From a bacterium (GTDB taxonomy: Bacteria; Patescibacteriota; Minisyncoccia; UBA6257; WO2-44-18), in contig JAUYMR010000012.1 of the NCBI GenBank assembly GCA_030698695.1, positions 1-53,595 on the forward strand: DNA of 53,595 nucleotides, given 5' to 3'. Positions 1-50,968 of this stretch are shown here, piece after piece (position 1 is the first letter of the stretch; each line of letters starts with the position of its first letter). The position numbers and the translations under genes are program-made. Below the pieces are notes generated by a model. It was not told the origin of the DNA. It saw only the letters and a program-made list of their open reading frames with translations, and did no database searches.

Positions 1-149
1 CTCAATAAATTTTTATTCTTAAAAGAATAATCAAGTTTGTTTTCTAATTTGTATAGTTCCACGATATGAAAGTCACTCAGTCAATAAGTTATTAAGTCGC
101 TGTGATGAATGTCAATGACTAGATAGCTTAATGACTCTATATTTATTCA

Positions 150-7544: not shown

Positions 7545-8708
7545 ATGCGCAGATCAATAGTTCTCATCGTAATGCTTGTGTTTTTCGCGGCCGCACCTAT
7601 TAAGATTTTTGCCGACGATGAATTGACTGCTGAGGAAATTTTTAATCAGTATAAGAATGCCGCTGTTGCTATTGAGGTTATTCTTAAGTTTGATAATGGG
7701 CAATCAGCGGGTATGTATGGCAGTGGATTTTTCATTGATAAGGACGGATATCTTATCACCAATGCTCATGTGGCTCGCTACAATTTACCTATTTACGTCA
7801 GTCCTTTTAGCCTCAAGGTGTTCAATGTTGTCGGTTATGAATATTGGATAGTTCTGCCGGCGAAGGGACGCAAATACAGGGCTGAGGTTGTCGGTTGGGA
7901 CTACAATAAAGATATTGCTCAAATGAAAGTTTTGAATATTGATCCGGCAGATTATGATGCCGTTAAAATCGGCAACTCTGATGACGTTAAAATTGGCGAT
8001 AAGGTTTACGCCATCGGTTCGCCATATGGCCTAAAAAATACTATTACCAGCGGCATCATTAGTTCTCTTCATCGTCACTCTGATAGTAAGCCAACCTTTT
8101 TGTTCATTGAGGATTTTATCCAAACAGACGCGCCGATCAACCCGGGAAATTCTGGCGGACCACTAATTAATGAGTGTGGAGAAGTTATTGGTATCAATAG
8201 CGCCGGCTATGATGCTGACGGACTTGGTTTTACTATTCCTATTAACTTGCTAGATAGAGCCACCCTTTACAACAATCAAGTTGAGCTGGTTTATATTGGT
8301 TTTGATCTGTTGTTAAATAATTTTGAGAGAAGTGGGACCAAAATTCGCCCGGGGTTTAATGATGTAAAAACTCTTAATGAATTAACTGGTATTGAAGATT
8401 TGGATTCTTTGATTACTTTGGCTAGAGTGACTTATGATCAGCATTGGGCGGTTGTTGAGGATTTAGATATTGATCCCAAATCCCCATCAGCTCAAGCCGG
8501 ATTTAAACGAGGAGATTTAATTATTAGTTTCAACGGTTATGAAGTTAAGAGCGGCTACGACGTGAGATTACTGCTATACAAATTGGAAGCCGGCAAAGAA
8601 TTTGAGGTTAAGATTTGGCGAATGATGGGCGGAGGTCTTTATAGAACATTAATTTTACGAGCTACTCCAAGGGAGAGATATTCCAGCAAGGCCCAAAAAT
8701 TATTTTGA
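7545..8708 (+). CDS. HtrA/DegP-family serine protease with PDZ domain
   Basis: AAGGAG SD 8 nt upstream of ATG 7545, then a signal/TM segment. HV..D..GNSGGPL triad and a C-terminal PDZ-like segment (GFKRGDLIISFNG). Confidence 0.85.
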   Translation: MRRSIVLIVMLVFFAAAPIKIFADDELTAEEIFNQYKNAAVAIEVILKFDNGQSAGMYGSGFFIDKDGYLITNAHVARYNLPIYVSPFSLKVFNVVGYEYWIVLPAKGRKYRAEVVGWDYNKDIAQMKVLNIDPADYDAVKIGNSDDVKIGDKVYAIGSPYGLKNTITSGIISSLHRHSDSKPTFLFIEDFIQTDAPINPGNSGGPLINECGEVIGINSAGYDADGLGFTIPINLLDRATLYNNQVELVYIGFDLLLNNFERSGTKIRPGFNDVKTLNELTGIEDLDSLITLARVTYDQHWAVVEDLDIDPKSPSAQAGFKRGDLIISFNGYEVKSGYDVRLLLYKLEAGKEFEVKIWRMMGGGLYRTLILRATPRERYSSKAQKLF

Positions 8709-11003: not shown

Positions 11004-11053
11004 TTATAATAAAACCCCTTAATAACGTGAAGAATATTTGCTATACTTTAATT

Positions 11054-13981
11054 ATGAAAAAGATATTTGTTATAGCGAGTGCATTGTTATTGAGTGGGGC
11101 TTCTTTCGCGGTCATGGCTCAGACGGCTGGCGAGAGTCAGACTGCCGATCCGATAAGTTTTATCAATGGCTCGGTGGATAATTTGCCATCGGTTATTTCA
11201 TCCGACGGGGTAGAAAGTTGTTTTGATAGCTACCCCTATGGGCAAGTTTCTTTTATTGATTCCAGAACTGACAAAGGATATTATCAGCCGGGAGATGCCG
11301 TTATCGCCACCGGCGTTCTCAGCAATCGTTCATCGGTGCCAGTTTCTGACGCGGCTATTTTTACACAGCTTTATTATGTTGTTAAAAATCTAGATGGCAG
11401 CATCACATCCCATTTAATTGATGCCACTAAAGCTTTTGATAATATTTTTGTGGGAGCTAACGATCAAAGTCAATTTTTGTATGAATATTCATTGCCAGAA
11501 TGGTTGCCAGCTGGAATTTACAGATTAGCGTCGTTTTTAGTGGTGAGCGAGCAGTATAATCTCGCCGGACTATCTTTTGCTCCGGATATTTATGGAGATC
11601 TGCAATCGTTTAAAATACAATCAGAACAATCTTTTGATTTGCCATATTTTGATATAAACAAATCAATTGTCGGCGGCAAGCTATATTCTCGCGACTTGCC
11701 ATCTTTGGCCGTTGAGGAATCGCCGGTGCTTGTACAGATGCCCTTATTGAATCCTGGCACCAACGCCAAGACCGTGGAGGTAATCAAAAAACTTTATCAT
11801 TGGGACGATATAGCTACGAAAAATTTTATCAGTGAAGAAAAGCAAGTTCTTAATCTGGATGCTGGCGGACAAAAGCTTATTCCTTTTACTACTCAACAGT
11901 TGGATGGCGGTACTTATATGGTTACTTTTACCGCTATAGACGTAGATGGTGGCCAAACTATTAGCAGAGTGCGCTTCAGCATACCCGGTAATAGAGTCCG
12001 TTTGATCTATTCTGGTTTATCCAATATACCATCAACTAAAGATGAACAAGCGTCCATAACCACTTGTTTTGCCAACGAAACTAATTTATCAAACGAAGAT
12101 ATCGGCAATAATATTAAAGTAACGTTGTTTGATAAGAGCGGCGATAGCTTATCATCGTTTTCTAGAGAGGTGTCGGCTTTTTCCAGTGATGTGGGATCAT
12201 GGGTTGAAGATTTTCAATACGGAGGCGACAAGCAACAAGATCTAACTCTGGTTGTGCAGCTTTATCAAGGAAATAAATTATTAGATGAAGTTAGGACGTA
12301 TTATCCGGCGCCCAAAAATTATCTGATAATTATACTTGTAGGCGTAGCCATATTATTATTGGGTTTAGTTTATGTGTTATATAAGCGACGTCGTTTTAGT
12401 GGGGCCACGACCATATCTTTATTGTTATTGATCAGCGTTTCTTTGTTGCTAGGCGGCTCATCGGTTGCTCAAGCGGCTTCCGATAGCTTCACGTTTCGCG
12501 CTAGAATAGGTGGTGCCGCGCAAGCGACATTCGGCATAAATACGTCAATAGATTTATTTAGTCCAGATGGCCTTTGGTATCCGGGAAATAGTTATTTTTT
12601 GGATTATGACAGGACCGCGGAATATAACGCCATTGGCGGATCTTTTGATAGTCCGCCCATGAACTATGCCAACACAGAACTTTATTCCAGAAGAAGTTTG
12701 CAGTATTCTTTACAGCCACTTGGTAATTTTATAGAAGAAGAGACTTATAATTATTTTGTGGACGCCACCTATGGTTCATTTGAAATGTCGGGGACCCCTC
12801 AGAAATGTCTTAGAGATAATTCTGGCAATAGATATTGCATGGGTATAGCCAGACGCGTTAGTACGGGCACCTATCATCCAGTTTTGTTAACTAGAAGTTA
12901 TAATTGGGATAATGCCTATGTTCGTTTTTGGCCCAGTGTGATCGCTACTAGCCCCGACAACTTTTATTTAGATATCCGCCTATCCAAAAGTGATGAATTA
13001 ATTGCCGACAATCTAGTCAATGATGATTTGGGGGTTATCTGCAGTCCAGAAAATTTTAGATGTGAAGTATCTCCAACGGCCAGGCCGGGCAATGTGGTTA
13101 TTACTTGGCGCATGACTTTGGGTGCGGCGACTCATAATTATAAGATTATGTATTATGGTAGATCGGCAATTTCCGGCGCTCTTGGTTACTGGTATCTAGC
13201 TGATTTCGGCGCTGATATAGTTCCGCAGGAAGGTAATCTGCCTAGAGTTTTAGAAACATCTACCGTGATTACTATAGCCAACGCTAATCCCGCTCCGCCT
13301 GGCGCGCCGTTTTTACAGGGTATCAATATTGAGCCGTGGGCTCCTTGTGGCGGTTCGGTTTATCTTAGTTGGTCAGCTCCAACCAGTGGCGGCGCCATAG
13401 AAGGTTATAGGGTTTTTCGTGATGGCAGACAGATTACTACTACCGGTCAAACTAATTATTTAGATTCTGGCCTAACTTCGGATACGATATATTCGTATGT
13501 GGTTAGGGCGTATAATTCCGTTGGTAATTCCATGCCTTCCAATACCGTTACTATTTTAGCATCTGGCAATTGTGTATCGGGGCCGCCGAGTGGAGGTGGT
13601 GGTGGAGTTGGGGGTTTGGAAGCTATAAACGTTGCTCCAGAGGCCAATTGTGAGACTATTTATCTTCGTTGGCCCGCGTATAGCGCCTCTGAAGGCTATA
13701 GGATTTTCAGAGAAACCAGTCGCGCGCCGGCAACTCAGATTGGAGCCATAGGCCCCTTGCAGAATCCGGGATTTCTTGATGATACTGGGCTGAATCCGAG
13801 AACGCTCTATAGGTATTTTATTGAGGCGTTTAACTCTTTTGGAGTTACCCGATCTAATACAACTCCATACACAAGTCCGTCCGTTGATAATTGCGGGGTT
13901 CGTCCACCTGATGGTGGTAACGGCGGCGGAGGAGGAGGGGCAAGTTCTACCCAGCCAGATATACGAGAGACTAACCCTTAG
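11054..13981 (+). CDS. Large secreted/membrane surface protein with C-terminal FN3-like repeats
   Basis: Signal peptide MKKIFVIASALLLSGASFAVMA and an internal hydrophobic hairpin. Two FN3-like units (GYRVFRDG.., GYRIFRET..) are separated by Gly runs. Confidence 0.7.
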   Translation: MKKIFVIASALLLSGASFAVMAQTAGESQTADPISFINGSVDNLPSVISSDGVESCFDSYPYGQVSFIDSRTDKGYYQPGDAVIATGVLSNRSSVPVSDAAIFTQLYYVVKNLDGSITSHLIDATKAFDNIFVGANDQSQFLYEYSLPEWLPAGIYRLASFLVVSEQYNLAGLSFAPDIYGDLQSFKIQSEQSFDLPYFDINKSIVGGKLYSRDLPSLAVEESPVLVQMPLLNPGTNAKTVEVIKKLYHWDDIATKNFISEEKQVLNLDAGGQKLIPFTTQQLDGGTYMVTFTAIDVDGGQTISRVRFSIPGNRVRLIYSGLSNIPSTKDEQASITTCFANETNLSNEDIGNNIKVTLFDKSGDSLSSFSREVSAFSSDVGSWVEDFQYGGDKQQDLTLVVQLYQGNKLLDEVRTYYPAPKNYLIIILVGVAILLLGLVYVLYKRRRFSGATTISLLLLISVSLLLGGSSVAQAASDSFTFRARIGGAAQATFGINTSIDLFSPDGLWYPGNSYFLDYDRTAEYNAIGGSFDSPPMNYANTELYSRRSLQYSLQPLGNFIEEETYNYFVDATYGSFEMSGTPQKCLRDNSGNRYCMGIARRVSTGTYHPVLLTRSYNWDNAYVRFWPSVIATSPDNFYLDIRLSKSDELIADNLVNDDLGVICSPENFRCEVSPTARPGNVVITWRMTLGAATHNYKIMYYGRSAISGALGYWYLADFGADIVPQEGNLPRVLETSTVITIANANPAPPGAPFLQGINIEPWAPCGGSVYLSWSAPTSGGAIEGYRVFRDGRQITTTGQTNYLDSGLTSDTIYSYVVRAYNSVGNSMPSNTVTILASGNCVSGPPSGGGGGVGGLEAINVAPEANCETIYLRWPAYSASEGYRIFRETSRAPATQIGAIGPLQNPGFLDDTGLNPRTLYRYFIEAFNSFGVTRSNTTPYTSPSVDNCGVRPPDGGNGGGGGGASSTQPDIRETNP

Positions 13982-22166: not shown

Positions 22167-23492
22167 ATGAAGCTAACGAAGGCGATTTTCTATTTGTTTC
22201 TAGCAAGCATCCCATTGGGGACTAGGTTTTTAGTGTATCAATTCACTTCGGGATTTCATGAATACGAAGCAATTTTTTTATATGCTAGCGATATATTATT
22301 GATATCTTTTTTATTTTTGGTATTTTTTCAACATTCCAACATTCTTAAGAATGTTGGAATGTTGCGTGGGGGATGGGCTTTGATTTTCTTTGTGGTTTTA
22401 AGTGGCGTCTCTATTTTTTGGGCGACAGCTATCGGATTAGCAATTTATAATTTTATCAAATTGTGTTTGCTGGTTTTAATGGCGCTAGCTATTGTTCAAT
22501 GGTTAAGATCGGGATCAATTAGACTCAGTCATATTTTAATTATTTTAGCTGGCTCGGCCGCTTTTCAATCGTTGTTGGGATTTTGGCAATTTCTTAAGCA
22601 GGCCAGTATCGGTTTGGGGTTTTTAGGCGAGTCAGTTCTCGGACCAACTATAGGTGGCTCAGCCAAGATCATTGTTAACGGAGCGCCCATTTTGCGCGCC
22701 TACGGCACGTTTCCGCATCCCAATGTTCTAGCGGCGTTTTTATTGTTGGGGCTGTTTAGTCTATATTATTTGTGGTTTGGATATAATACAAACGGCACAA
22801 ACGTAATGCGCGCATCGCTAGTTAGATTTTTTTTAGTTGGAGGATTTTTTGTTGTGATTTTGGGTTTGATTTTGACTTTTTCTCGCTCCGCTTGGGTCAT
22901 AGGCTTATTTTCAACAATGGCATTTAGCATTTATTGGTTGGTGCTTAAAGTCTCGCGCCGTCCCGCGATGTTTTTAGTGTTAGCACTTCTTACTATCAGC
23001 TCCCTACTACTAGTCATCTTCAATTCTTATATTTTCCCACGCGCTCATATTTCTGCCAGCGAGCCAGCAGTGGTTTATCGTTTGGAATATAATAAATTGG
23101 GAATGGATTTAATTAAAAATAATCTTTTAGGAGTCGGCATCGGTAATCAGGTTCTGTATTCGGTGCGTGAAGGTGTTTATCAAAAATTTGGCATGGATCA
23201 AGTTTGGCAATGGCAACCAATTCATAACATTTATTTGCTAATCGCGTCTGAAGTGGGAATCGTTGGATTTTTATTTTTTATGGTTTTTATCGGTTATTTA
23301 ATTTTTGATTTAAGACGTCTATCATTTAACCCCTCGCACCCGACAATGTTAATAATGCTTATGGCGTTATTAATATTCGGTCTAGTTGATCATTTTCTTT
23401 GGACATTGCAACCAGGCAAACTTATGTTGTGGTTAGTTGTGGGTATGGCGATAGCGCGGAGCGTTGAGGTGGCCAGCCTTGCTTCTTCCTAA
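22167..23492 (+). CDS. O-antigen ligase (Wzy_C)-like membrane protein
   Basis: At least 10 TM segments and a central SRSAW motif typical of O-antigen ligase-like proteins. Confidence 0.7.
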   Translation: MKLTKAIFYLFLASIPLGTRFLVYQFTSGFHEYEAIFLYASDILLISFLFLVFFQHSNILKNVGMLRGGWALIFFVVLSGVSIFWATAIGLAIYNFIKLCLLVLMALAIVQWLRSGSIRLSHILIILAGSAAFQSLLGFWQFLKQASIGLGFLGESVLGPTIGGSAKIIVNGAPILRAYGTFPHPNVLAAFLLLGLFSLYYLWFGYNTNGTNVMRASLVRFFLVGGFFVVILGLILTFSRSAWVIGLFSTMAFSIYWLVLKVSRRPAMFLVLALLTISSLLLVIFNSYIFPRAHISASEPAVVYRLEYNKLGMDLIKNNLLGVGIGNQVLYSVREGVYQKFGMDQVWQWQPIHNIYLLIASEVGIVGFLFFMVFIGYLIFDLRRLSFNPSHPTMLIMLMALLIFGLVDHFLWTLQPGKLMLWLVVGMAIARSVEVASLASS

Positions 23493-36072: not shown

Positions 36073-37278
36073 ATGAAGAGAATCTACCTAGATTATGCCG
36101 CTTCTACGCCAGTTGACCCAGTGGTTAAAAAAGCCATGGATCCTTATTTTTCAAAAATGTACGGCAATGCCGGTTCTTTACATTCTTTTGGACAAGAAGC
36201 ATCGGCAGCTGTTTTTAGGGCTCGCGAAGTCATTGCGCAAGCTATCGGAGCTAATTATCGGGACATTATTTTTACCGGTTCGGCCACGGAAGCTAATAAT
36301 TTGGCTTTGCGCGGAGCTGTTAAAAGCGTCAAGTATCAAATGTCGGGTATCAAGCCAAGAATTATTATTTCTTCCATTGAACACGAGTCTGTTTTGGAAA
36401 CGTGTCATGATTTAGAGAAAGAAGGAGTAGAAATAATTTATTTACCAGTTTCCAAAGATGGGATAGTTGATTTAGTCGCGCTCAAAAAGGCGCTCAATGA
36501 CCGCACTATTTTAGTTTCTATAATGTATGCCAACAATGAAATCGGCACCATCCAACCAATATCTAAAATTGCCGAAATTGTCAGCGATTTTCGTAAACCC
36601 GAAGTTAAAAACCAACCAACTAACCAATTAACCAACTGCCCCTTACTTCACACCGATGCTGTCCAAGCTTTCCAATATCTTGATTGCAATGTTCAAAAAT
36701 TGGGAGTGGATCTAATGACTTTATCAGCGCATAAAATCTATGGCCCCAAAGGTATTGGCTGTCTTTACGCGCCATATCGCAATAATCATTATCCATTGTC
36801 GCCAATCGTCACTGGTGGTGGACAGCAAAACGGTATTCATTCGGGGACAGAGAATGTTCCTTATATCGTCGGTTTCGCTAAGGCCATTGAGTTGGTAGTT
36901 AAAAATCGGGAAAAAGAGGCTAAGCGCGTAAAGTCTTTGCGTGATTATTTTTGGCAGAGATTAAAAAAGATTGCGTCGGGGATTACGCTTAATGGGTCTT
37001 CAGAAAAAAGATTGCCGAACAACCTTAATATTTATTTTGCCAAGCAATCAGCGCAGGATTTGCTGATTAAACTGGATATGGTCGGCGTGGCGGTATCGCC
37101 CGGCTCGGCTTGTCGCGCGCAGGTAGCTAGTTCCTCTTATGTGCTGGAGGCCATGGGTTTACCGACGAATCTTTGTTCTAATAGTTTACGGTTTACTTTG
37201 GGCAGACCGACGATTAAAGTTGAAATAGATACAACTATTGACAAATTAAAGAAAATCTGCTATCCTCAAAACAGATAA
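36073..37278 (+). CDS. Cysteine desulfurase (NifS/IscS family)
   Basis: IYLDYAASTP, GSATEANN, HTDAVQA, SAHKIYGPKG and GSAC motifs. Confidence 0.9.
   Translation: MKRIYLDYAASTPVDPVVKKAMDPYFSKMYGNAGSLHSFGQEASAAVFRAREVIAQAIGANYRDIIFTGSATEANNLALRGAVKSVKYQMSGIKPRIIISSIEHESVLETCHDLEKEGVEIIYLPVSKDGIVDLVALKKALNDRTILVSIMYANNEIGTIQPISKIAEIVSDFRKPEVKNQPTNQLTNCPLLHTDAVQAFQYLDCNVQKLGVDLMTLSAHKIYGPKGIGCLYAPYRNNHYPLSPIVTGGGQQNGIHSGTENVPYIVGFAKAIELVVKNREKEAKRVKSLRDYFWQRLKKIASGITLNGSSEKRLPNNLNIYFAKQSAQDLLIKLDMVGVAVSPGSACRAQVASSSYVLEAMGLPTNLCSNSLRFTLGRPTIKVEIDTTIDKLKKICYPQNR
37238..37266 (+). promoter_or_regulatory. Promoter inside the 3' end of the desulfurase CDS
   Basis: TTGACA-17 nt-TATCCT, about 80 nt upstream of the small GC-rich ORF. 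Confidence 0.45.
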
Positions 37279-37345
37279 GCGATGCTTCGGCACGGGGCCG
37301 AAAGACAGGCTTGGAATAGTTGCTTGAAAAAAGAGGGAAGAAACC

Positions 37346-37561
37346 ATGAGAGTAAAGAGCGCGTCCGATCCGACCAATGGCCCCGTCAAGGACCCCGCCC
37401 GCGGAAGGAAGAAGTTGGGCGATTTCTGCCGTTGTAATTTGAGGAGAGATGTATTTACTCCTGTGGACGGAGACGTCGACTTTTATGCCCCTTATGAGGG
37501 GCATAGTCTGCGCTCGCTCTTCTGTGAGCCCAGTCTTTTGGAGTCGGACTCCTTGGATTAA
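37346..37561 (+). CDS. Small GC-rich hypothetical protein (71 aa)
   Basis: GAGGGA SD 6-7 nt before the ATG, G/C-rich third positions in the first half, and a strong terminator downstream. Confidence 0.45.
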   Translation: MRVKSASDPTNGPVKDPARGRKKLGDFCRCNLRRDVFTPVDGDVDFYAPYEGHSLRSLFCEPSLLESDSLD

Positions 37562-37600
37562 GGCGATCTTTCGCCCGGGCTTTTGGATGACGAGTTTCGG

Positions 37601-37639
37601 GTCCCCCGTTCCATATTTTCGGAACGGGGGACTTTTTTA
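37601..37639 (+). terminator. Rho-independent terminator
   Basis: 12-bp stem GTCCCCCGTTCC/GGAACGGGGGAC followed by T6. Confidence 0.85.
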
Positions 37640-37642
37640 TTT

Positions 37643-39172: not shown

Positions 39173-39376
39173 TGGACGCTACTGGGATCGAACCAGCGAC
39201 TTTTCCGACCTGCCTGCCGTATTGGTGCGCGCACCTGGATTCGAACCAGGGGCCTTTGCAATGTGAATGCAACGCTCTAACCAGCTGAGCTATGCGCGCC
39301 TAGATAGGCCTATTTGTTAAACAAGTAGGCGGTAGGCGGGCGCGAACGGAACGTTCTGCCACTGAACTAAGCGTCC
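39173..39376 (-). tRNA. Interrupted tRNA (isotype undetermined) with a ~132-nt insert in the anticodon loop
   Basis: GGACGCT-TA-GTTC-AGTGGCA-GAAC-G-TTCCG [139 nt] CGGAA-AAGTC-GCTGG-TTCGATC-CCAGT-AGCGTCC-A. All stems and tertiary-contact positions are intact. Confidence 0.6.
39223..39299 (-). tRNA. tRNA-Val (anticodon CAC), CCA encoded, nested inside the interrupted tRNA
   Basis: GCGCGCA-TA-GCTC-AGCTGGTTA-GAGC-G-TTGCA-TTCACAT-TGCAA-AGGCC-CCTGG-TTCGAAT-CCAGG-TGCGCGC-ACCA. Confidence 0.9.
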
Positions 39377-44654: not shown

Positions 44655-44682
44655 TTGACAGATATTCTATATATGCTATAAT
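44655..44682 (+). promoter_or_regulatory. Consensus sigma70-type promoter immediately after tRNA-Glu
   Basis: TTGACA-16 nt-TATAAT. Confidence 0.6.
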
Positions 44683-44748
44683 GCAACGACAACCAGTACA
44701 TTGTTAGATGGTTTTGTTTTTGAGGCCACTTTCACGAAAGGAAAGATC

Positions 44749-45039
44749 ATGGCCGACGCGCGCAAGAAGGGTGGCGAAGGGGTCGTCAAGGTCGCCAAGG
44801 GCGGGAGCCAGAAGAAGAAGTCTCTCCCGCGCCGTACGGGGAAGAGGAATCGCAACGGCTACGCCAGCCGCCAGGTGACGCGTACGGAGATGAACAAGTG
44901 GCGGCGGGTTATCCGCTCCAACTCGCCCGAGGATGCCCGCGGGTGGTCCGAGAGACACGGCTACATGTCCGACCTCCGCCAGCTGGAGGAGACGAACACC
45001 AAGATGGCGGCCAAGGCCCGCAAGGCCGTCGCCACCTAG
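44749..45039 (+). CDS. Small highly basic GC-rich hypothetical protein (96 aa)
   Basis: AAAGGAAAG SD-like element before the ATG and strong G/C third-position bias. About 66% GC by hand count against about 40% background. Confidence 0.65.
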   Translation: MADARKKGGEGVVKVAKGGSQKKKSLPRRTGKRNRNGYASRQVTRTEMNKWRRVIRSNSPEDARGWSERHGYMSDLRQLEETNTKMAAKARKAVAT

Positions 45040-45045
45040 TCGTAC

Positions 45046-45080
45046 GCCCCCGATCTCACGATCGGGGGCATTTTTATTTT
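45046..45080 (+). terminator. Rho-independent terminator
   Basis: GCCCCCGATctcacgATCGGGGGC followed by a T-rich tract. Confidence 0.85.
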
Positions 45081-46867: not shown

Positions 46868-46922
46868 TTTTTAATATCTTAACGCCTCAGACGCTTTTGT
46901 CCTTTAGTATTTTGATTTTTTT

Positions 46923-46958
46923 ATCATCCACTACCCTTAAGGGTAGTGGATGATTTTG
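46923..46958 (+). terminator. Rho-independent terminator after tgt
   Basis: 14-bp stem ATCATCCACTACCC/GGGTAGTGGATGAT followed by TTT. Confidence 0.75.
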
Positions 46959-46979
46959 TGGTGAGATTCTCATTAAATT

Positions 46980-47014
46980 TAAAACCCCCCGAAGACAATG
47001 GTGTCTTCGGGGGT
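46980..47014 (-). terminator. Rho-independent terminator of the 53-aa ORF
   Basis: Minus strand: CCCCCGAAGACaccattGTCTTCGGGGG followed by TTTT. Confidence 0.8.
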
Positions 47015-47039
47015 GCGCATGATATCCATCGCGGGCGGA

Positions 47040-47201
47040 CTAATTGCTCTTGATGGATTTTTCTCTGATGTCACAACCGACATCGGCGAGGCGGTCGTGG
47101 TGGGGGCATTTGTCGGGACGGCCATCCCGGGTTTCCATACACTCACCAATGCGTCCGTGGGCCATGCAGACCCACTGGCGGATTTCGGGCTTGGAGTCCA
47201 T
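47040..47201 (-). CDS. Small Cys/His-rich GC-rich hypothetical protein (53 aa)
   Basis: Not in the ORF track. Perfect SD AAGGAGG 6 nt before the ATG. Hand translation gives MDSKPEIRQWVCMAHGRIGECMETRDGRPDKCPHHDRLADVGCDIREKSIKSN; about 57% GC by hand count. Confidence 0.6.
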   Translation of the reverse strand: MDSKPEIRQWVCMAHGRIGECMETRDGRPDKCPHHDRLADVGCDIREKSIKSN

Positions 47202-47282
47202 AACAGACCTCCTTACAAAAAGTGCTAATCGCCGAATCCGGGCGATACGGTGCCCGTCCTTGGGCGATTATTTCCTAATTAA

Positions 47283-47312
47283 AGTATAGCACATAACGCC
47301 ATAACCTGTCAA
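47283..47312 (-). promoter_or_regulatory. Promoter for the 53-aa ORF cassette
   Basis: Minus strand TTGACA-18 nt-TATACT, predicting a GC-rich structured leader of about 75 nt. Confidence 0.5.
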
Positions 47313-47334
47313 TGACGTATTATCAAGCCGGAAA

Positions 47335-47364
47335 ACAAAAAAGAGCAAAATTGCTCTTTTTTGT
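47335..47364. terminator. Bidirectional hairpin terminator downstream of tRNA-Phe
   Basis: ACAAAAAAGAGCAA/TTGCTCTTTTTTGT. Confidence 0.75.
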
Positions 47365-47368
47365 TGTG

Positions 47369-47440
47369 TGCCGCGGGGGTGAATCGAACACCCGACACGA
47401 CGCTCTTCAGGCGTCTGCTCTACCACTGAGCTACCGCGGC
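47369..47440 (-). tRNA. tRNA-Phe (anticodon GAA)
   Basis: GCCGCGG-TA-GCTC-AGTGGTA-GAGC-A-GACGC-CTGAAGA-GCGTC-GTGTC-GGGTG-TTCGATT-CACCC-CCGCGGC-A. Confidence 0.9.
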
Positions 47441-50170: not shown

Positions 50171-50968
50171 TTATAGCAAGTTGAGTTTTTTCCGTTCCAA
50201 GTGTTTTTCAGATTCCAAAACAATCTTTTCCATCATATTCACGGCTCCTACGGGATATTTGCCGATGGCGCTTTCTTCAGATAGCATTACCGCGTCAGAT
50301 CCGTCCAAAATAGCGTGAGCTACGTCAGAAACTTCGGCGCGAGTAGGGGTCGGATTTTCAACCATTGATAGCAACATTTGCGTAGCCGTTATAACGGGTT
50401 TGCGCGCCTTATTACATTTTTTAATAATCATTTCTTGAATAAACGGCAGGCGTTCTATCGGCACAGCCATACCCAGATCGCCGCGGGCGACCATGACGGC
50501 GTCAGCGGCTTTGATGATCTCGTCTATATTGTCAACGGCCATTTGTCGTTCTATTTTGGCAATAATCGGTTTTATTTTGCCGTGCTTTTTCATTAGGTCC
50601 CGCAATTCCGTGATATCGTTTTTATCGCCAACATAAGAAAGGGCGATATAGTCTATGTTTTGTTCTAGGCCGAACGCTAAATCTCTCATATCTTTGGGTG
50701 TTATAGCTTTTTTAGCGCCTACTTGAAAGTGATGGCCCTCTACTGTTGTTTCTCGTGGTCCGGATAGATCTTGAATAATAGGTATGGGGCGACCCATTTT
50801 CGCGGCAGCCTTGCGGATGCGATTTATGTAATCAGTGTGTTCTTCATGTGTGCCATGAGAGAAATTGAGGCGGGCTATATCCATTTGGCTGTTTATCATT
50901 TCTTGCAAAACACTCAGCTCTTTGCTAGCCGGTCCTATGGTGGCAACTATTTGCGCGCGTGATGACAT
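50171..50968 (-). CDS. pyk: Pyruvate kinase, minimal form (A-domain barrel only)
   Basis: [30 protein letters not shown] and [17 protein letters not shown] motifs. Only 265 aa. Confidence 0.8.

Follow-up and report, generated by a model that had tools for sequence, protein, structure and literature searches.

Organization of the locus

The stretch of DNA analyzed here (the window) comprises 53595 nucleotides of a patescibacterial genome (GCA_030698695.1, contig JAUYMR010000012.1), and its genes are of the housekeeping type, encoding ribosomal proteins L10 and L7/L12, MraZ, RsmH, a penicillin-binding protein, and a Mur ligase, along with Sua5, Tgt, a pterin-4a-carbinolamine dehydratase, a class II ribonucleotide reductase, and pyruvate-kinase-like and enolase-like proteins. 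Set against the 40.4% GC of the window, the region at 46980–47312 forms a 58% GC island between convergent genes, with tRNA-Phe and tgt among its neighbors. Directly upstream, on the same (minus) strand, is tRNA-Phe(GAA) at 47368–47440 (ARAGORN; 68.6 bits with the Rfam tRNA model), and sequence inspection placed the terminator of its transcript at 47333–47360 (minus strand), where a 9-bp A/T-rich hairpin (AAAAGAGCA-ATTT-TGCTCTTTT) is followed by the T-run TTGTTTT. Rfam matches to this terminator are weak and of the terminator type only.

Within the island, the minus strand carries what looks like a complete expression unit, here called the cassette. A promoter scan identified a sigma-70-type promoter at 47283–47312 that matches the consensus at 11 of 12 positions, and which consists of TTGACA (47312–47307), an 18-nt spacer ending in TG (an extended −10), and TATACT (47288–47283). 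Transcription of the predicted RNA would then start near 47276, and roughly 6 nt from this inferred 5′ end begins a two-tier leader hairpin at 47226–47270 (AAUCGCC...CGGGC-loop-GCCCG...GGCGAUU), with a minimum free energy of −23.7 kcal/mol. Next in line is the Shine-Dalgarno (SD) sequence AAGGAGG (47208–47214), which lies 6 nt before an ATG at 47201 that opens a reading frame of 53 codons (MDSKPEIRQWVCMAHGRIGECMETRDGRPDKCPHHDRLADVGCDIREKSIKSN; 47040–47201), hereafter ORF53, ending with a TAG at 47042–47040. An intrinsic terminator at 46980–47013, found by terminator scan and folding, starts 26 nt past the stop codon and has a 12-bp GC-rich stem (47013–46986), a 4-nt loop, and a GTTTT tract. 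The predicted ORF53 product is a hydrophilic protein of 6.1 kDa (pI 6.8), having cysteines at positions 12, 21, 32, and 43 and histidines at positions 15, 34, and 35, and its gene has a GC content of 57.7% (0.58/0.45/0.70 by codon position). Promoter, SD, ATG, stop codon, and terminator thus occur in the correct order and spacing, and do so on the minus strand only. The initial annotation had described just such a self-contained unit of promoter, leader, SD, reading frame, and terminator downstream of tRNA-Phe and its terminator, and our scans and inspection of the sequence support it throughout, down to the TTGACA-18-TATACT hexamers, the leader fold, the 6-nt spacing of AAGGAGG, the GC-clamp terminator, the cysteine and histidine positions, and a GC content that had been counted by hand as about 57%.

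Coding strand and coding potential

For the chance expectation of these signals, we used a null model of 20000 dinucleotide shuffles, in which an SD had to be spaced 4–9 nt from an ATG that opens a frame of at least 50 codons. This conjunction appeared in 0.015% of the shuffles for AAGGAGG and in 0.23% for GGAGG. The length of ORF53 on its own does not go beyond chance and is uninformative, given that the region is a GC island with four of the six frames open and that an ATG frame of at least 53 codons occurs in 22% of the transcript shuffles.

ORF53 had been presented in the initial annotation as unannotated, and indeed the large protein collection includes no call with its exact sequence, exact look-ups having returned nothing. 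Called instead by the gene caller at this site is P0007, a 69-residue product of the plus strand that starts at 47019, and which is the shorter version of a 76-residue antisense ORF (46998–47228, plus strand) in the ORF listing. According to one alternative explanation, it is this plus-strand ORF (46998/47019–47228; 76 or 69 residues) that represents the real gene, being expressed by read-through from tgt, though we regard this as highly improbable. Apart from its having been called, the codon statistics speak for it, since modeling of codon usage on 114 long ORFs, drawn from loci with 52–62% GC, gave the antisense same-register frame a log-odds score of +13.0 versus +5.1 for ORF53, and G occupies the first position in about 53% of its codons. 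Both scores, however, are within the range of true genes, and the codon-usage test for loci of this GC content fails to discriminate between ORF53 and its antisense frame. Moreover, the Gly/Ala/Val-rich composition of the plus-strand ORF is typical for the antisense of a GC-rich gene, and the ORF is likewise an orphan with no homologues. As for expression, the promoter scan revealed no promoter on the plus strand of the cassette region, and the ORF is situated behind the 14-bp terminator of tgt, with its start codons in or against the 12-bp hairpin at 46986–47013. The plus-strand ORF also has no SD, which is normal in this genome, but unlike the SD-less genes of the host it shows no −10 box at the distance expected for leaderless transcription.

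The absence of an SD from the plus-strand ORFs, to which the initial annotation had drawn attention, is correct as a fact, but is weak as an argument about the strand, as 30 of the 35 long ORFs in the window also have none, and many of them look leaderless (a −10 box 6–9 nt before the ATG). In the same genome, genes internal to operons do make use of SD motifs, and on this account the SD of ORF53 should be usable, even if a leadered, SD-driven monocistron is unusual for this genome. The cassette sequence was found in none of the RNA sequencing runs searched. Because we give the ordered expression signals more weight than the composition statistics, we favor ORF53 as the putative gene.

Leader and RNA structure

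The leader hairpin was put forward in the initial annotation as a structured element, perhaps a riboswitch. However, its fold is no better than that of shuffled sequences (z of −1.4 and −1.6, not significant), an Rfam scan at gathering thresholds recovered only tRNAs and tmRNA, and a scan of 46900–47360 at E ≤ 10 gave chance-level matches to hairpins only and no family for the leader. On these grounds, the reading of the leader as a riboswitch or conserved structured element is not supported. Since tgt is adjacent, the preQ1 riboswitch was also considered, which would resemble the leader in being a small 5′ hairpin beside a queuosine-pathway gene. Here, the hairpin instead belongs to a convergent, unrelated transcript, has neither an A-rich tail nor a pseudoknot, and shows no match to preQ1 families at E ≤ 10. 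The leader is identical in the two strain alleles described below. We read it, by analogy to 5′ stem-loops such as those of ompA and aprE, which serve in RNA stabilization, as a putative mRNA-stabilizing stem-loop rather than a riboswitch.

A further alternative holds that the cassette gives rise to a small regulatory RNA, about 295 nt in length and either non-coding or dual-function, for which ORF53 would be incidental or secondary. Known dual-function RNAs with a small ORF are SR1/SR1P of Bacillus subtilis and SgrS/SgrT of Escherichia coli, and the cassette is similar to these in being a stand-alone RNA of 200–300 nt with a terminator and a short ORF. An independent promoter-to-terminator unit of such size between convergent genes does fit this explanation, as do the fold of the whole transcript (z of −3.2) and the lack of evident constraint at the protein level. 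Yet it is the terminator and the 5′ hairpin that account for the fold signal, with the 182-nt ORF body having no excess structure (z of −0.41), and neither a target nor a base-pairing region can be identified, in contrast to the SR1 and SgrS type, nor is there a signal of structure or conservation in the body. In addition, the substitutions between strains alter the predicted helices rather than compensating for one another, no Rfam family was matched, and a perfect SD and ATG with a reading frame that takes up the remaining length before the terminator would be unexpected for a pure small RNA. In view of this, we consider a small-RNA product quite unlikely. The near-zero z-score of the body, together with the lack of an RNA family match, argues against a structured RNA gene as well, and candidates of the 6S, SRP, or RNase P-like kind were rejected on the basis of that z-score and the non-compensatory differences between alleles.

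Search for sequence and structural homologs of ORF53

To identify homologs of ORF53, we searched its sequence against a range of collections. A word-indexed search through roughly 5.8 billion proteins found no homologue, nor was one present among JGI metagenome contigs and IMG/VR, and there were no matches by phage tblastn, by plasmid and phage blastn, or to Pfam, PHROGs, NCBIfam, PADLOC, and PDB sequences (Pfam, NCBIfam, and PDB at E ≤ 10). The tblastn and HMM searches by which the initial annotation had hoped to place the protein hence gave no homologue in the collections searched. With phmmer over 1.84 billion representatives, four matches were obtained, all of them to internally repetitive proteins. 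Three of these are to TIR/NACHT proteins that carry extended HEAT-like repeat arrays, and the remaining one is to a junk translation made up of tandem repeats. Residues 2–26 of ORF53 match the HEAT-like repeat unit, a single repeat giving 32.7 bits and 14 identities in 25 residues, and residues 2–20 (DSKPEIRQWVCMAHGRIGE) fit the repeat of the TIR/NACHT-HEAT proteins (DSDPRVRQSVCEAFGRIGE). The E-values are inflated, as seven to eight repeats are summed per target, and the junk tandem-repeat protein scored alike. This similarity would thus be a weak lead at most, a single repeat not being significant across the library, and no further HEAT-like similarity was seen in other reading frames. Compared with HEAT and PBS-lyase HEAT-like repeats, ORF53 has one repeat unit only, and its AlphaFold2 model contains strands and not a helical hairpin. 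Assignment as a HEAT protein was rejected in light of the one motif, the absence of a Pfam match at E ≤ 10, and the change of GRIGE to GRPSE in the second allele (allele B).

The AlphaFold2 prediction, made with no alignment, yielded a model of low confidence (pLDDT of 62.7) that consists of short strands and β-hairpins, and a Foldseek search of this model against the PDB gave no match (best E of 2.6). The initial annotation had suggested that the protein may bind metal, with a zinc-knuckle fold to be sought by AlphaFold. The presence of four cysteines and three histidines in 53 residues, and a low-confidence model with β-hairpins, are indeed reminiscent of zinc ribbon, zinc knuckle, and L36-type modules. 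However, the spacing of these residues (C-x2-H-x5-C-x10-C-x-HH-x7-C) includes no CxxC or CxxH knuckle pair, and there is no sequence match in Pfam, NCBIfam, or the PDB and no fold match, so that a zinc knuckle is not supported. That the four cysteines and three histidines might ligate a metal is accordingly no more than a doubtful prospect in our view. No transmembrane or signal segment is apparent in ORF53, from which we infer that its product is probably cytoplasmic.

Genomic setting and sister cassettes

The third codon position of ORF53 is markedly GC-rich (0.70, versus 0.29–0.40 in the neighboring genes), and host genes have GC contents of about 0.47/0.38/0.38 by codon position. A GC content that is highest at the third position (0.58/0.45/0.70) is as expected for a gene that comes from a GC-richer donor. 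The island is not an assembly chimera, as an independent 470-nt contig of sequencing run X1 spans 46925–47394 and crosses both junctions at a depth equal to that of the flanks. The DNA of the window was encountered solely in runs from a single groundwater metagenome study, and the same applies to a neighboring protein. Among the closest relatives of Tgt, which come from metagenome-assembled genomes labelled Candidatus Saccharibacteria (60% identity in GTDB genomes, 69% in metagenomes), neither tRNA-Phe nor a GC island lies beside tgt, and with no local gene order shared in either set, synteny is lost overall, such that these genomes offer no genuine unoccupied site for comparison. From these relatives and the groundwater source, the host would be a Patescibacteria/CPR-type bacterium that seems to lack any closely related sequenced genome.

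With regard to a mobile origin, the surroundings provide no phage context, the neighbors being housekeeping genes and PHROG, IMG/VR, and phage-genome matches being absent. An integrative-element scar at a tRNA gene was likewise rejected, since direct repeats of the tRNA 3′ end are at chance level, amounting to an 8-nt repeat (CACCCCCG) for tRNA-Phe and to none of at least 8 nt for tRNA-Glu. The gene at 11054 has a leaderless promoter with which the −10 and start region of the cassette shares 23 of 25 positions, a resemblance that is borderline by chance, and which suggests that a host-type promoter may have been joined to foreign DNA.

The initial annotation also pointed to the same architecture at two other places in the window, and this holds for the promoter, the small GC-rich ORF, and the terminator. 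The first of these sister cassettes (44655–45075, plus strand) follows tRNA-Glu, its promoter starting 3 nt after the tRNA gene, and includes a promoter matching 12 of 12 consensus positions, a 96-residue ORF (ORF96; 44749–45039), and a 10-bp terminator. ORF96, a singleton in the protein collection, would encode a very basic protein (pI 11.4), and has about 66% GC (up to 68% in windows) with a GC content of 0.91 at the third codon position. Between strains, it differs by eight substitutions (three synonymous and five non-synonymous) and an in-frame AAG deletion. As a side observation, six of these eight substitutions fall on codon position 1 of ORF96, and in its antisense same-register frame they would count as seven synonymous and one non-synonymous, which gives it a purified look; that frame would have a GC content of 0.91 at its first codon position and carries no expression signals. 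The second sister cassette (37238–37640, plus strand) has a promoter that matches 10 of 12 positions and overlaps the end of a cysteine-desulfurase-like gene, a 71-residue ORF (ORF71; 37346–37561, third-position GC of 0.63), and a 14-bp terminator. ORF71 forms a singleton cluster in the protein collection and shows one strain difference, D8N. Both sister cassettes are within 10 kb of the ORF53 cassette, and two of the three units lie directly 3′ of tRNA genes. Beyond the promoter hexamers, no DNA or protein similarity, paralogy, or shared ends were detected among the three. In a genome of 40% GC, a third-position GC content of 0.91 has hardly any ready explanation other than recent import, and all three units are hence most naturally read as horizontally acquired. 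Combined with the in-frame indel between strains, this GC content also indicates that foreign mini-genes of such a kind exist here.

Variation between strains

Alleles were compared between Logan contigs of run X1 on the one side and the window and run X2 on the other. Over most of the 53.6 kb, the run X1 contigs are identical to the window, with a few single differences and five patches of variation. In the cassette, all variation is contained in one 30-nt patch inside ORF53 (47121–47150), which has five substitutions (plus strand: 47121 G>A, 47125 T>C, 47147 C>T, 47149 A>G, and 47150 T>G), and the promoter, SD, and terminator are unchanged. For ORF53, these amount to one synonymous and four non-synonymous changes, namely I18P (two hits in one codon), G19S, D26G, and a silent change at G27. 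As the substitutions are clustered, a target of a diversity-generating retroelement was considered, and was rejected on finding no repeat of the region in the 53.6-kb window and changes that are not adenine-specific.

Both alleles leave ORF53 open, and also the plus-strand ORF, for which the count is again one synonymous to four non-synonymous, a further point against its being the gene. None of the six frames at ORF53 appears purified, the best having three synonymous to two non-synonymous changes. On conservation of the reading frame, which the initial annotation would have sought in homologous loci, no such locus turned up in the collections searched, and the one other allele keeps the frame open, and changes three of the 53 residues non-conservatively and one codon silently. 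The population data thereby argue against strong constraint on ORF53. Among the patches outside the cassettes, one is at the left edge of the window (52–103), and the other two, at 8063–8438 (in the gene at 7545) and 50531–50867 (in the pyruvate-kinase-like gene), supply the housekeeping counts of 20 synonymous to three non-synonymous substitutions. Pooled over the three cassettes, the corresponding counts are four to 10 (Fisher p = 8e-4), which shows the cassette ORFs to be under weak, absent, or diversifying selection.

These figures bear on another explanation, in which the cassette is recently acquired foreign DNA that is non-functional, or no longer functional, and drifts neutrally as a remnant, its signals being due to chance or recent origin. 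In its favor, ORF53 is a strict orphan, its substitutions are indistinguishable from neutral (one to four, including an isoleucine to proline change) in an otherwise near-clonal population, the cassettes as a group depart from housekeeping genes in the ratio of synonymous to non-synonymous changes, and the partial, weak similarity to one HEAT-like repeat could mark a fragment of a larger gene. On the other hand, this similarity is not extended in any other frame, and the near-consensus promoter, the perfect and ideally spaced SD of 7 nt, and the 12-bp terminator have all remained unmutated, the ORF is intact in both alleles, and the variation is confined to 30 nt. The conjunction of SD, ATG, and ORF is also very unlikely to have come about by chance, and useless DNA is usually lost quickly from small streamlined genomes. 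We hence judge a drifting remnant to be unlikely.

Origin and proposed role of the cassette

Taken together, the cassette is in our estimation somewhat more probably than otherwise a horizontally acquired, moron-like gene for a fast-evolving orphan small protein. By this account, transcription of the minus strand would begin near 47276, driven by an extended −10 promoter of the host type, and yield an RNA of about 295 nt, and the stem-loop within some 6 nt of its 5′ end would probably shield it from decay that depends on the 5′ end. Judging from the translation signals, AAGGAGG would then recruit the ribosome to the ATG at 47201 for synthesis of a hydrophilic, cysteine- and histidine-containing protein of 53 residues, and the hairpin at 47013–46986 would end the transcript. 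Points against the small-protein gene are the missing homologues, the four non-synonymous changes to one synonymous, the higher codon score of the antisense frame, and the low confidence of the AlphaFold2 model. Having no known family and changing in a fast or weakly constrained manner, the ORF53 product is more in line with an accessory, conflict-type, or dispensable role than with a housekeeping one.

Phage morons, such as the HK97 gp15 element, are defined by their own promoter, their own terminator, and a deviant GC content (PMC3594210; Cumby, Davidson & Maxwell 2012). The cassette is alike in its small ORF, its own predicted sigma-70 promoter (a consensus match) and terminator, and its GC content of 57.7% versus 40.4%. 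Moron products, too, are usually orphans with no function assigned, and their GC deviation implies horizontal transfer. Nonetheless, the cassette is located outside any phage or prophage, the three units being scattered over a core chromosomal stretch, and without the phage or prophage context it is not a member of the moron class. Resemblance is also found to ORFan small-protein genes, which are shorter than 60 residues, are missed or mis-stranded by annotation, have no homologues, and are weakly constrained. In contrast to these, however, the GC content of the cassette lies 18 points above that of the genome, and its expression signals are canonical and complete, which argues for import over local de novo birth. 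Horizontal gene transfer is reported to be frequent in aquifer Patescibacteria (PMC12455944), and imported orphans would therefore be unsurprising here.

A more far-reaching proposal is that the three GC-rich units represent an undescribed kind of minimal, moron-like cassette that, in ultra-small Patescibacteria, inserts in the core chromosome with a preference for sites just 3′ of tRNA genes, and encodes fast-diversifying micro-proteins for conflict or contact with hosts, phages, and competitors. This would explain the foreign composition, the orphan status, and the excess of amino-acid-changing differences between strains. With three examples in one genome to build on, we deem it a decidedly improbable generalization.

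The practical value of these findings is modest, as they concern sequence signals from one population. If the protein is made, ORF53 would be a gene mis-handled by automatic annotation, the sole call having been placed on the opposite strand. It would, moreover, be one of three foreign micro-genes, each with a complete set of signals, within the core of housekeeping genes of a bacterium that is streamlined and probably symbiotic. Little dispensable DNA is believed to persist in streamlined genomes, and by that reasoning orphans that are retained, strongly promoted, and fast-changing would be candidates for the interface between the bacterium and its host or phages.

Translation start signals and the ORF53 promoter

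The majority of first genes in the window lack a Shine-Dalgarno (SD) sequence and have a -10 box placed 6-9 nt upstream of the ATG, examples being those at 11054, 17044, 18414, and 24325. Because the SD is absent and the -10 box lies so near to the start codon, these genes appear to be leaderless. At internal operon genes, AGGAG or GGAGG is present, as at 7545, 16333, 23561, and 39827 (minus strand). The promoter of ORF53, the 53-codon ORF beside tRNA-Phe, resembles over its -10 and start region (47271-47295, TATGTGCTATACTTTAATTAGGAAA) the stretch with the leaderless promoter and ATG (11035-11059, TATTTGCTATACTTTAATTATGAAA) of the gene at 11054, which encodes 975 aa, with an identity of 23/25 nt that is borderline by chance. 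An AGG is found in the ORF53 promoter region where the gene at 11054 has its ATG.

Strain variation in ORF96 and housekeeping genes

In the groundwater metagenome run X1, ORF96, a GC-rich ORF of 96 aa (44749-45039, plus strand), is represented by two alleles that are eight substitutions and an in-frame AAG deletion apart (44792-44959). Six of these eight substitutions fall on codon position 1, and they give three synonymous and five non-synonymous changes in the ORF96 frame. The antisense frame in the same register (44704-44958, minus strand) has a GC1 of 0.91, and when read in it the changes are seven synonymous and one non-synonymous; no expression signals were found for this antisense frame.

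Where strain differences cluster in housekeeping genes, nearly all of them are synonymous, with synonymous to non-synonymous ratios of 16:1 for the patch at 8063-8438 in the gene at 7545 and 4:2 for that at 50531-50867 in a pyruvate-kinase-like gene. Both patches have the look of short segments imported by recombination from a relative of somewhat higher GC content, and within 8063-8438 the X1 allele changes mainly AT to GC. The pyruvate-kinase-like ORF itself (50171-50968, minus strand) encodes just 265 aa, while typical pyruvate kinases have about 470 aa, and it is possibly a truncated or barrel-only form.

A split tRNA-like gene around tRNA-Val

On the minus strand, a tRNA-like gene occurs in two halves (39173-39376), with the break in the anticodon loop and a gap of ~133 nt between the 5' half (39376-39347) and the 3' half (39207-39173). 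A complete tRNA-Val(CAC) gene (39299-39223, minus strand) lies within this gap. Joined in silico, the halves give a cloverleaf that is accepted by ARAGORN, with an anticodon (CGC, CGG, or CAG) that varies with the junction; the unspliced gene was not detected by ARAGORN in intron mode. Possible readings of this locus are a nested tRNA, an intron, and a disrupted pseudo-tRNA.

Palindromic elements

A palindromic element of 21-25 nt (TAAGGCCTTGCGATGGCCTTA) is found in four copies and both orientations in the window (14869, 15078, 15609, and 34126), and these resemble either REP-like hairpins or shared terminators. There is also a perfect 36-nt palindrome (22329-22366, CAACATTCCAACATTCTTAAGAATGTTGGAATGTTG), whose 560-nt bin has a mean depth of ~165x in run X1, as against ~8x for the genome, and of ~22x in run X2, a second groundwater metagenome. 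Since many different flanks are joined to this palindrome, the element appears to be common to many contigs of the community.
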